Below are positions 25,214 to 35,712 of a stretch of 63,709 bases of DNA, in pieces (position 1 is the first letter of the stretch; the number at the start of each line of letters is the position of its first letter). The stretch comes from Leptolyngbyaceae cyanobacterium. Its GTDB lineage: Bacteria > Cyanobacteriota > Cyanobacteriia > Phormidesmidales > Phormidesmidaceae. Position numbers and translations under genes: made by a program. Below the pieces are notes generated by a model, which saw nothing but the letters and a program-made list of their open reading frames with translations, was not told the DNA's origin and did no database searches. The stretch is taken from contig JBHJHA010000034.1 of assembly GCA_050331235.1 (NCBI GenBank), forward strand, positions 1 through 63,709, given 5' to 3'.

Positions 25214-25247
25214 ACGGTATCGATAACTTATGAGAAACTGATGACGA
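25214..25247 (-). promoter_or_regulatory. Direct-repeat box plus -10 (island promoter 1)
   Basis: Minus strand: TCGTCATC-agt-TTCTCATA-N9-TACCGT. Confidence 0.55.
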
Positions 25248-25432
25248 GCCTCCTCATCCTGTTCCCGATTGCAGGTCCTTAATGGTCACAATTCTCTTCC
25301 AGTTGTCTCAATACCAACGGATCTTGTCATGGTTATCGATATTTATTGGCAAGAGCAATCTGAGATTCATTGAATACGCAGAAGAGAATCTGAAAAACGC
25401 ATATTGTATGAGTGTTGAGCCGTTCTAGAAAA

Positions 25433-25780
25433 TCAGCCAAATGATGACACAGCCTCCCTTTGGGGCTTAGCAGATGTCTGGCAGGGAAAATACTTGAGCG
25501 CATCCGCCTCTTGCAGAGTTGGAACAATCGCATTATTGAGCAAACGCTCTATGCGCTTTTGTTCATGTTGGGACAAGAGTTTTTGGACATCTTTCAAATT
25601 TATGTAGCCGCTTTCAGACAACACATAATTAGGCTGGAGTTGATTCAGGATGCAGACGACGAGCTTTTTTCGTAAACTGAGATTAAAAAATGCTGAATGA
25701 TACGGATGAGAAGATTTTTGAATCAGCTCACTAATTTTTTGGTCGACAAAATTTTGATTTAAGTTGATGATCTCAGGCAT
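25433..25780 (-). CDS. Hypothetical protein, ComFB-like
   Basis: IINLNQNFV ... HPYHSAF ... LRKKLVVCILNQLQPNY resembles cyanobacterial ComFB-family proteins. Confidence 0.55.
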   Translation of the reverse strand: MPEIINLNQNFVDQKISELIQKSSHPYHSAFFNLSLRKKLVVCILNQLQPNYVLSESGYINLKDVQKLLSQHEQKRIERLLNNAIVPTLQEADALKYFPCQTSAKPQREAVSSFG

Positions 25781-26059
25781 GGGAAACCTCAAAAGGGAAG
25801 TTGGATTTTAAAGACAATTAAAAATGGCGGATCTCTGCAGACTCAATTAATTCAAGAGGTTAAGATTTCAGAGTCTTGAAGGGGGATACCCATCAGATTG
25901 GGATTGGATAAAATCCAGCCAGGAAATAGGATTCCCTAAAGCTGGCATAACAGAGGGCGAATCTGGCGATCGCACAGACCCAGACCTGACTATGATTCGC
26001 TGTATTGCTAGTAAGGGAATCCTTTCACTGATCGTTCTCAACGGTTTGTAATGCTGAGG

Positions 26060-26093
26060 CAGGGGGGCAGTTTGATGACAAAATGCCCCCCTG
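26060..26093 (-). terminator. Hairpin downstream of hsp20
   Basis: CAGGGGGGCA ... TGCCCCCCTG 10-bp stem. Confidence 0.55.
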
Positions 26094-26129
26094 TTGACGG
26101 GATTTCAATCAAATAAGTTGACCCTAAAA

Positions 26130-26597
26130 TTAGGCTATTTTGACCTTGACGGACTTATCTTGTTGCTCTTTGGACTTCGGTAATGTCAACTTCAAAATGC
26201 CGTCCTTATACTCAGCGACGACTTTATCGCGCTCAATATGACTCGGCAGGGGGACATAGCGCTCAAACTTGCCATAGTAGAATTCCGATCGCCGGATCCC
26301 TCCTTCCTCAGACTGAGTCTCAGACTTGCGTTCACCTATAACTGAAACAGCGGCGTTGCTGACTTCAATGTCTAAGTCATCTGCGCTCATACCAGGGACT
26401 TCTAGTTTGAGATGCAACTCCGTGTCAGTTTCATCGATTTCGGCTGAGGGGACAAAGATTGCTTCATCCGAGCTGCGACCAAAGTCAGGAATAAAGCGTT
26501 CCAGCAGATTGTCCATTTCTTTTCTGAGCGTATCGACTTCGCCAAATGGCTCCCAATGCTTTAGGTCATGAAAAGGTTGCCAACGAGTCAGTGCCAT
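26130..26597 (-). CDS. Hsp20/alpha-crystallin small heat-shock protein
   Basis: EVPGM, SEFYYGKFER, YKDGILKLTLPK; RBS GGAGG. Confidence 0.95.
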   Translation of the reverse strand: MALTRWQPFHDLKHWEPFGEVDTLRKEMDNLLERFIPDFGRSSDEAIFVPSAEIDETDTELHLKLEVPGMSADDLDIEVSNAAVSVIGERKSETQSEEGGIRRSEFYYGKFERYVPLPSHIERDKVVAEYKDGILKLTLPKSKEQQDKSVKVKIA

Positions 26598-26696
26598 TTT
26601 TCTACCTCCGTGTAGCAGATCTCAAAACGACAGCGTTCTTCTTGAATCAGCCATTGGGGAATGGATTGAGGCTGTAGATCAAGAACCTTTATCGCT

Positions 26697-26730
26697 ACCC
26701 TAAAACAACATTTTGAGGAAAATATGAGGG
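26697..26730 (-). promoter_or_regulatory. Direct-repeat box plus -10 (island promoter 2)
   Basis: Minus strand: CCCTCATA-ttt-TCCTCAAA-N9-TAGGGT. Confidence 0.6.
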
Positions 26731-26752
26731 TCTAGATACTTCTTGTGAGTGT

Positions 26753-34374: not shown

Positions 34375-34657
34375 AATTTTTCCATCTATATCTATTTCAA
34401 GTGATAATGAAAACGCCGCATTTATGTCGCTAAAACCCGACTCAAAATGAGCTAGGTAGATGGAAATCCGTTTTCTAACTGGCCCTATTCGGATAGTCAG
34501 GACGTAATATCATGGGAAGATTCTGCTACCTTCCCCATGAGGAGTCCTGGATCTCAAGCTCAAGATGGGTTAGAACTTAAAAGTTGAGGCTGAGTTCTAG
34601 AAAACCCCTTTTCTCACTTGAAAACCAAGTTGTTTCGCACTATCGTTACTGTCTCCG

Positions 34658-34855
34658 CTACCATGGCGGGTTATTGTGATGATGATGGGTGTTAGGGATA
34701 TCCCCCTCAAAGGGCTGAGCTCCGGTTGCGGGATAATCATCATCACCGGGACTAAAGATGCGCCCAGAGGCCTGAGCGACCGCGTCAAACGGTTGCTGAC
34801 AAGCGCGCAGCATTCTTTGAGTTTTGACCAGCCATCGTCGCTTAAGTGAAGTCAT
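34658..34855 (-). CDS. Small conserved cyanobacterial protein
   Basis: RIFSPGDDDYPATGAQPFEGD motif, recalled from small cyanobacterial ORFs. Confidence 0.7.
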   Translation of the reverse strand: MTSLKRRWLVKTQRMLRACQQPFDAVAQASGRIFSPGDDDYPATGAQPFEGDIPNTHHHHNNPPW

Positions 34856-34940
34856 GGTTTATCTCTCAATGTTGCTCAATTACAGAACTTAAGTAAGGTC
34901 CTATCGCTGCTACCTAAGAAGCATTTATGAGGCTCATTCG

Positions 34941-35132
34941 CTAACGAATTTTTAAACGCGACCGCCAGATTTCGGCTCTATAATCAAGCCGGTAGCAGCG
35001 CTCTAAAAACTGTCTTCGCTCATTTTTGAAAAATGCTGAGGGATTCCAGCGAAGTGGCCTTTGGGGGCAAAGAATGGGTTGCTTTAGATAAGCCCCTACG
35101 AAGCTCCAAAAAACGGGTTGATTTATATACAT
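34941..35132 (-). CDS. Small hypothetical protein
   Basis: LKQPI ... WNPSAF ... FLERCY pattern recalled from small cyanobacterial ORFs; co-oriented with island. Confidence 0.55.
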   Translation of the reverse strand: MYINQPVFWSFVGAYLKQPILCPQRPLRWNPSAFFKNERRQFLERCYRLDYRAEIWRSRLKIR

Positions 35133-35325
35133 TGCTATAGCCTCTTATCACATTGCTCCAAAAATCTGTGGTCTCTGCTGTAAGCTCCCAATCAGAAACA
35201 TCCCCGCATTAAACATTCGACGTTTCACCTATCTGAAGCCGATGACTGACCCGCATGACAGTACCGCTAGAGAGAACTGAACAGCTACTTGATTGGTGGC
35301 TAGGCCCAGATTTGGCCTCGACAGG

Positions 35326-35544
35326 TTAGGTGATCTCTGCTTCTGAACGCTGCTGCATAGACCGTTTACGATTCGCTTGTGCCCGACGCTGTTGAGTTAA
35401 AGACTCGCGCGCCTCCTCTTGAATTTCCCCACCATTCCTGGCGGCAATTTCTGCTTCGCTCCGCTCTAAAGCGGATTGCTGACGATTGTGTGCCTGATGA
35501 CGTTGCTCGGCAATGTTGTAGCGGGCCTGATCCTGAGCAGACAT
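35326..35544 (-). CDS. 72-aa protein with two tandem IF7 (GifA)-like motifs
   Basis: MSAQDQAR-x11-NRQQSALERSEAEI and IQEEAR-x11-NRKRSMQQRSEAEI; RBS GAGG before ATG 35544. Confidence 0.7.
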   Translation of the reverse strand: MSAQDQARYNIAEQRHQAHNRQQSALERSEAEIAARNGGEIQEEARESLTQQRRAQANRKRSMQQRSEAEIT

Positions 35545-35569
35545 TTCTATGACCTCAAACCTTGTGCAA

Positions 35570-35671
35570 GTAGGTGGTAGTCGCCTTGTGCTGGCACATC
35601 TCCAACTCTTCCCGTTGAAGGGACGGCATTCCTTATCAGCCATGCGCCAAAGGCGATCAAGTGCTCCCTAC
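35570..35671 (-). ncRNA. Candidate structured 5' leader (cis-regulatory RNA)
   Basis: Nested pairings GTAGG/CCTAC, TCGCCTT/AAGGCGA, TGGCGCAT/ATGTGCCA, CTTCAAC/GTTGGAG. Confidence 0.4.
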
Positions 35672-35678
35672 AGTCATC

Positions 35679-35712
35679 AACTTATCCAGAGAGTATGAGG
35701 ATGTTATGAAGA
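35679..35712 (-). promoter_or_regulatory. Direct-repeat box plus -10 (island promoter 4)
   Basis: Minus strand: TCTTCATA-aca-TCCTCATA-N9-TAAGTT. Confidence 0.6.

Follow-up and report, generated by a model that had tools for sequence, protein, structure and literature searches.

A conserved direct-repeat promoter element of cyanobacteria and a candidate multi-domain OmpR-family regulator with a likely dark or low-oxygen role

The window analysed here is a stretch of 63,709 nucleotides from a Leptolyngbyaceae cyanobacterium (contig JBHJHA010000034.1 of assembly GCA_050331235.1), and positions with a contig prefix, such as C69, refer to other contigs of the same genome. Four genes of the window, encoding a DUF4342 protein, a small heat-shock protein (hsp20), phosphoenolpyruvate synthase (ppsA) and an IF7-like small protein, are preceded by a common element, the box, in which two 8-nt half-sites in direct repeat are separated by 3 nt and followed 9 nt later by a -10-like hexamer. 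The boxes, scored with the refined matrix explained below, and their predicted targets are the following:

25229..25247, minus strand: box before the DUF4342 gene; hexamer 25219-25214, predicted start around 25207, 17.2 bits
24821..25177, minus strand: DUF4342 gene, predicted target (PF14242, E 2e-24)
26712..26730, minus strand: box before hsp20; hexamer 26702-26697, predicted start around 26690, 30.3 bits
26130..26597, minus strand: hsp20, predicted target (PF00011)
34356..34374, minus strand: box before ppsA; hexamer 34346-34341, predicted start around 34334, 27.0 bits
31812..34289, minus strand: ppsA, predicted target (TIGR01418, above cut-off)
31277..31819, minus strand: universal stress protein (USP) gene overlapping the ppsA stop (PF00582)
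30436..30969, minus strand: second USP gene, without its own box, after a 308-nt gap
35694..35712, minus strand: box before the IF7-like gene; hexamer 35684-35679, predicted start around 35672, 29.8 bits
35326..35544, minus strand: IF7-like small protein of 72 aa, predicted target; start set from homologues
34941..35132, minus strand: conserved small gene of 63 aa, with homologues in the same order in three related loci (L047, L180, L185)

The first USP gene is likely co-transcribed with ppsA, and the second is possibly read through from ppsA in a putative operon. Likewise, the 63-aa gene likely belongs to the operon of the IF7-like gene. The name IF7-like, taken from a preliminary description of the locus, should be considered a weak label, as the match to NF052599 (IF7A) scores 38 bits and the family cut-off is 70.

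Read on the minus (coding) strand, the boxes run from 25247 to 25229, 26730 to 26712, 34374 to 34356 and 35712 to 35694, exactly where the preliminary description had placed them, and each has its hexamer at the 9-nt distance; only the ppsA hexamer, TATAAA, lacks the final T. Spacers and flanks are unlike among the four. Throughout the 4.8-Mb genome, a -10-like hexamer was found at offset 9 in 8 of 136 repeats (spacer 3, up to 3 mismatches), three of the eight being boxes already described, versus 0-3 cases at each of 11 other offsets. A refined matrix was then built from 37 sites of relatives, which had been gathered with the four original boxes and are not fully independent of them. Scanning the genome with this matrix, a check that had been proposed with the original description, returned ten sites of at least 20 bits, of which the window and contig C69 hold three each; four runs with permuted columns returned no such site. 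Within 24501-36400 there are four sites of at least 16 bits, when 200 dinucleotide shuffles gave a mean of 0.01 and a maximum of 1. The column counts reveal a near-invariant dinucleotide per half-site (41/41 and 40/41 sites in each half), a conserved A and T in the spacer and T residues right after the repeat; the first two bases of the hexamer are fixed in 41/41 sites, but those bases belong to the search pattern. No sigma-70-type -35/-10 match was found at any of the four promoters, and the arrangement is that of OmpR/PhoB-type promoters, with two half-sites of 11-bp period in a fixed position over the -35, counted from starts that are predicted. The box is a conserved 11-bp-period direct repeat overlapping the predicted -35 region, in agreement with the earlier proposal that such a repeat replaces the -35, and it is almost certainly a real regulatory site.

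Conservation was assessed in homologues chosen by protein similarity only, in 120 genomes of the same family, the own genome being excluded. All 15 loci were taken for the IF7-like gene, and for the other three genes the top 30 loci of 89, 42 and 42 matching genomes; one DUF4342 locus was dropped owing to a short flank. A site of at least 16 bits on the coding strand, no more than 400 nt upstream, was present in 25/29 ppsA homologues (mostly at 86-90 nt), 20/29 of hsp20, 19/28 of DUF4342 (mostly at 70-71 nt) and 7/14 of the IF7-like gene, these being the seven best-scoring ones; the motif is kept upstream of these homologues, as the preliminary description had anticipated. The opposite strand held a site in 0/29, 10/29, 2/28 and 0/14, respectively, and the absences gather among the most distant homologues. 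A strict pattern gave 501 matches in 121 family genomes against 9 for a reversed control, and in a sample of the class 504 matches, in 128 of 301 genomes, against 15 in a control counted by hand. It was not found in 30/30 f18 and 8/8 f21 genomes, which are small.

We then looked for the gene of the protein that reads the box. The genome has 12 OmpR-family (Trans_reg_C) genes, and only C69:16878-18683 has boxes within 50 kb, three of them, at 0.6, 1.3 and 2.1 kb. Its product of 601 aa has the order REC-wHTH-HPt-REC with a degenerate middle receiver, and the phospho-acceptor residues Asp51, His294 (HPt) and the Asp of the last receiver are present. Loci of its relatives were collected as 31 named records, mostly from Leptolyngbyaceae and their kin, plus one distant non-cyanobacterial match. 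With a matrix made from the four original boxes alone, 25 of the 31 hold a site, and the 42 sites found there compare with 9-13 when the -10 is shifted and 1-5 when the spacer is changed. In the family sample, at least two strict sites occur in 45/50 genomes that encode a close homologue of the regulator (E no higher than 1e-82, the limit being set at a gap in the list) and in 16/71 without one; in the class sample, the same holds for 60/71 genomes with the same recognition helix and 24/230 others, a count that includes 7 genomes encoding a one-residue variant of the helix and takes no account of further variants. In genus g1 (seven genomes at least 90% complete), those with the homologue have 5, 2 and 9 sites, and those without it 0-1. 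Regulators of a second clade, which are often fused to a kinase, have nearly the same helix; in 6/6 f7 genomes examined their gene is divergent from a USP gene with a box of 30-36 bits, and hoxE-F-U follow this regulator-kinase fusion/USP pair in 5/6. In Nostoc PCC 7120 a gene placed before hoxE-hoxF is also the printed order (PMC3091678). The regulator of the box probably belongs to this C69 family.

The neighbours of the regulator in relatives point to the other members of a relay. Among the 30 cyanobacterial regulator loci, a neighbouring kinase best-matches C116:5113-9027 in 17, and a single-receiver gene best-matches in 14 a gene of the window:

37284..37673, minus strand: single-receiver protein, RcaF/RfpC-like

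Regulator, kinase and single receiver are thus linked in relatives and split over three contigs here. The preliminary description had predicted one OmpR/PhoB-family activator encoded outside the window; this is most likely right, with C69:16878-18683 as the candidate, but a likely phosphotransfer partner inside the window had been missed. Kinase C116 has the domains CBS, PAS, GAF, PAS, HisKA and HATPase. Its GAF lacks a cysteine at what we take to be the bilin-binding position and has five cysteines, of which six close homologues retain four or five; distant homologues have lost them. Folding this GAF without an alignment gave a pLDDT of 41. Since the GAF of Hik2 binds an iron-sulfur cluster (PMC13421787), we regard a redox-sensing GAF as a lead rather than a result.

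What the box may control was surveyed at 203 distinct sites, 194 of them with an open reading frame, in loci picked by regulator or motif and therefore biased. Among the families of first genes, the largest is that of a 129-aa gene next to the regulator (24); then come USP (14), CBS (9) and flavin oxidoreductase (8), followed by a small-protein family (7), ppsA (6), nifJ (6), ABC ATPase (5), hsp20 (4) and hydrogenase protease (4); smaller ones include sqr (3), hoxU (2), pflA (2), pfkA (2) and also ftsH, and 54 are singletons. Forty-four targets were hand-picked for an NCBIfam scan; at 1e-15, 20 of them matched no family. No antenna or photosystem core cluster appears among the recurrent targets, where one psbU family has 2 sites (the 54 singletons and several small families are unnamed). 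The 129-aa protein has no Pfam, NCBIfam or Atlas family. Glycyl-radical activase (for pyruvate formate-lyase), pyruvate:ferredoxin oxidoreductase (PFOR), bidirectional hydrogenase and sulfide:quinone reductase (SQR) are low-oxygen functions. In Synechocystis, hox and nifJ are induced under microoxic conditions (PMC13421787, PMC11368403). The box before nifJ, pflA, hox, pfkA, sqr, USP and CBS genes points to fermentation in the dark or at low oxygen. Beyond the set first proposed, the predicted regulon reaches C69, and across cyanobacteria it is centred on fermentation and hydrogenase genes, not on chaperones.

The repeat, its 9-nt spacing, its conservation, its clustering around the regulator gene and the trio conserved in relatives are all features of the DNA itself. 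From them we propose, with a probability of roughly 0.6, that the box is bound by the C69 multi-domain OmpR-family activator, which is predicted to switch on genes for dark or low-oxygen fermentation and dormancy; low oxygen or darkness is probably the signal. In such a relay, falling oxygen or energy charge would lead kinase C116:5113-9027 to autophosphorylate on His, and the phosphate would pass through the single receiver of the window to HPt His294 and then to Asp51 of the C69 regulator. The two half-sites, spanning about -40 to -22, would each be occupied by one winged-helix domain, in head-to-tail order, and the bound regulator would recruit RNA polymerase to promoters without a -35, as PhoB does. 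The regulon would here be cut down to ppsA-usp(-usp), hsp20, DUF4342, the small proteins and the C69 neighbours, a reduced set because nifJ, pflA, hox and sqr were not found in the genome.

Several observations weigh against this proposal. A tblastn search of this genome (95.5% complete) did not find nifJ, pflA, hoxE/F/U, hypE or sqr, and its pfkA and CBS homologues have no box. Three of 16 regulator regions have no site, 11/71 helix-positive genomes have fewer than two, and sites are held by 14/34 upstream regions from genomes without a close regulator homologue; up to 15 occur in genus g159, also without a close homologue, where more distant paralogues may act. The co-occurrence counts overstate the association, as matrix and pattern were trained near regulator genes and the genomes are related. 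In addition, the regulator family is expanded, and its box-associated members fall, in quick trees, into at least two clades not shown as one. Kinase inputs vary, with CBS in 3/6 and GAF in 4/6 homologues and an ETR1-like N-terminal domain in one partner kinase, and only close relatives retain the GAF cysteines, for which reasons a single signal is not established.

The alternative that survives best keeps site and regulator but replaces the signal: the relay would read energy charge, hydration, salt or sulfide, and its genes would form a general dormancy or stress programme. CBS domains, which bind adenylates, head several kinases, the input domains differ between lineages, and the targets of this genome are stress genes without nifJ or hox. 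Moreover, the regulator of the related H box responds to hydration (PMC13079394), and in Anabaena PCC 7120 hox and nifJ shift together with calcium (PMC4915528). We nevertheless find this account rather unlikely, as low-oxygen functions (activase, PFOR, hydrogenase, SQR) recur behind the box in several families.

It is less likely still that a different OmpR-family protein (Hrr1-like, ManR, CopR or an RcaC-like paralogue) binds the box and that the C69 gene is a neighbour or a target. The H box of Hrr1 is also a pair of 11-nt repeats, whose opposite strand agrees with the box consensus at 8-9/11 positions in the motif as printed (PMC13079394), and sites are present in genomes without a close C69 homologue. 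The H box, however, departs from the near-invariant dinucleotide, the Hrr1 targets sigB1, cpeR1 and wspA are absent among the 44 scanned targets, and the other 11 OmpR-family genes of this genome, including the RcaC-like one on C37, have no site within 50 kb; the genus g1 counts also go with the C69 homologue. The ManR/CopR lead of the preliminary description found no support: metal genes are not among the targets, the best candidate is of the multi-domain RcaC/RfpB type, and no box stands at either of the two ZnuA/MntC-family loci in the genome, where repeat-only scores reach 2.6-9.8 bits at best.

It is very improbable that the repeat is recognised by a sigma factor or serves a repressor that covers the -35. 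A fixed distance to the -10 is also typical of sigma elements, and RpaB represses when its motif overlaps -38 to +23 (PMC13421787). Half-sites one helical turn apart, on the other hand, suit tandem winged-helix binding (PMC4415409), the four promoters without a sigma-70-type match argue for activation, and the box is linked to a response regulator gene. Finally, chance resemblance or recent local duplication of one promoter, conceivable insofar as these very four sites had supplied the first consensus, is refuted by the excess over shuffled sequence, by the excess of matches over the control in 121 genomes and by the position-conserved footprints; the differences in spacers and flanks also speak against it.

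The proposed C69 relay resembles known systems in part. RcaE/RcaF/RcaC and RfpA/RfpC/RfpB, of chromatic and far-red acclimation, likewise have a kinase, a single receiver and a multi-domain winged-helix regulator encoded together (PMC5737509, PMC4658448). The C69 protein, with its REC-wHTH-HPt-REC order and phospho-acceptor residues, is like the RcaC/RfpB-type regulators. Unlike RcaE and RfpA, the kinase GAF lacks the bilin-binding cysteine and is absent in 2/6 homologues; unlike in both systems, the recurrent targets include no phycobiliprotein or far-red light photoacclimation (FaRLiP) genes, with small families and 54 singletons unnamed, and regulator-kinase fusions occur. The relay could be a new variant of the RcaEFC/RfpABC design, as a candidate only. 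The 9-nt gap to the -10 is as in pstS; the half-site differs from that of PhoB, as do the multi-step relay and the mostly non-phosphate targets (one pstB among 44 scanned). In the E. coli Pho box, winged-helix domains occupy two direct-repeat units of 11 nt in head-to-tail order (PMC4415409), and the box described here has two units of this length as well. Hrr1 of Nostoc flagelliforme is also of the OmpR family and dark-active, with a related pair of 11-nt repeats (PMC13079394); compared by its printed motif, it differs in the near-invariant dinucleotide and in its targets. Judged by printed motifs, its H box would be the closest one and the main way in which the box could prove partly known.

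Control of hox, nifJ and low-oxygen genes by CyAbrB2/SigE, LexA and ChlR involves shared targets and conditions (PMC13421787, PMC3091678). None of these proteins is a direct-repeat phosphorelay activator: they comprise a nucleoid protein, a sigma factor and regulators that bind palindromes. The mycobacterial DosR regulon is a functional analogy that also has USP and CBS members; DosR itself is of the LuxR/NarL type, works with haem kinases and binds palindromic sites, unlike the C69 regulator with its Trans_reg_C domain, and no regulator homology is claimed. The kinds of protein shared are alpha-crystallin, the nitroreductase Rv3131 family, phosphofructokinase and phosphoribosyltransferase (PMC5309233). 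Our literature search, with most subscription papers outside its reach, found no description of the box or the relay.

Cyanobacteria of mats, crusts and blooms produce hydrogen and ferment at night, yet hox and nifJ are reported to be controlled by a nucleoid protein, SigE and LexA, in work done mostly in Synechocystis (PMC13421787, PMC3091678). The present analysis offers candidates for activator, kinase, shuttle and binding site, with a list of targets from many families; judged on sequence comparison, the widespread promoter element is real, the candidate regulator well supported and its dark or low-oxygen role likely. The chances are about even that many filamentous and other large-genome cyanobacteria own a dedicated master switch for dark anoxia, made of a non-photosensory RcaEFC-type relay and one direct-repeat box. 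Such a switch would activate PFOR, pyruvate formate-lyase, the bidirectional hydrogenase, SQR and a DosR-like dormancy set; the Cys-rich GAF would possibly sense oxygen or redox state, and the CBS domains energy charge. It was not found in the small unicellular lineages favoured as models, which would explain why it has been overlooked. If true, this would be a third, non-light branch of the RcaEFC/RfpABC design, and it would give a handle on hydrogen production and a compact candidate promoter inducible by anoxia or darkness.

Two further boxes had been described in the window, and they concern these features:

29930..29948, plus strand: fifth box, repeat intact and -10 damaged, before the DUF1816 pseudogene
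29990..30232, plus strand: DUF1816 pseudogene (PF08846), with in-frame stops at 30023-30025 and 30053-30055
34658..34855, minus strand: conserved small gene of 65 aa, preceded by the sixth box

The fifth box scores 17.7 bits as a repeat only and 7.7 bits in full because its -10 is damaged, the hexamer being altered at the second base. DUF1816 homologues have the same box 109-111 nt upstream in 5/12, with an intact hexamer 10 nt after it. It is evidently a decaying member of the set and the promoter of the DUF1816 pseudogene: the repeat is real and kept in relatives, and it is not reversed with respect to its own gene, having the same orientation as the broken DUF1816. The weaker sixth box (34915-34933) scores -2.6 bits in full and 1.8 repeat-only and is unsupported. 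DUF1816 and hsp20 are divergent neighbours in three relatives, for which reason the 899-aa PAS hybrid kinase that lies between them here (26753-29452), ending 23 nt before the hsp20 box, looks inserted. One of its PAS domains resembles NifL/LOV domains and lacks what we take to be the LOV cysteine; as a sensor for the C69 regulator this kinase was rejected, as it is the best match in 0/30 regulator loci.

Other candidates and observations concern the regulator and its sites. The second RcaC-like gene, on C37, was discarded as it has no site within 50 kb and a different recognition helix; within C37:3224-16907 it is grouped with genes for a single receiver of its own, a REC-GGDEF-like product and a multi-PAS protein of 3004 aa. 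A GGDEF domain forms the C-terminal end of some regulators associated with the box (L362, L371). The 129-aa family was rejected as a universal marker: a widespread paralogue (134/401 genomes) has no site of at least 13 bits in 29/29 foreign loci and at its own C52 copy. This paralogue (C52:30699-31151; L055-L083) has a different upstream element with two G/C-run arms, seen by eye in most of 30 regions, a putative site of a second regulator. Three more sites of 20-24 bits, at C18:2246, C106:766 and C35:52006, have no clear target, and at the end of contig C46 (75545-75861) the promoter region of the C69 129-aa gene recurs almost unchanged, its hexamer being one base off, as either a repeat or an assembly overlap.

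Within the window, a ComFB-domain gene without its own box lies between DUF4342 and hsp20 (25433-25792). Beside the predicted regulon, a MarR regulator adjoins a 322-aa globin fusion (37875-39456), a possible nitric oxide or oxygen module, before which the matrix scan found no box. A 63-aa peptide at 36221-36412 has a double-glycine-type leader and two tandem charged repeats, and the overlapping short frames at 40835-41601 look like fragments of an insertion-sequence transposase.

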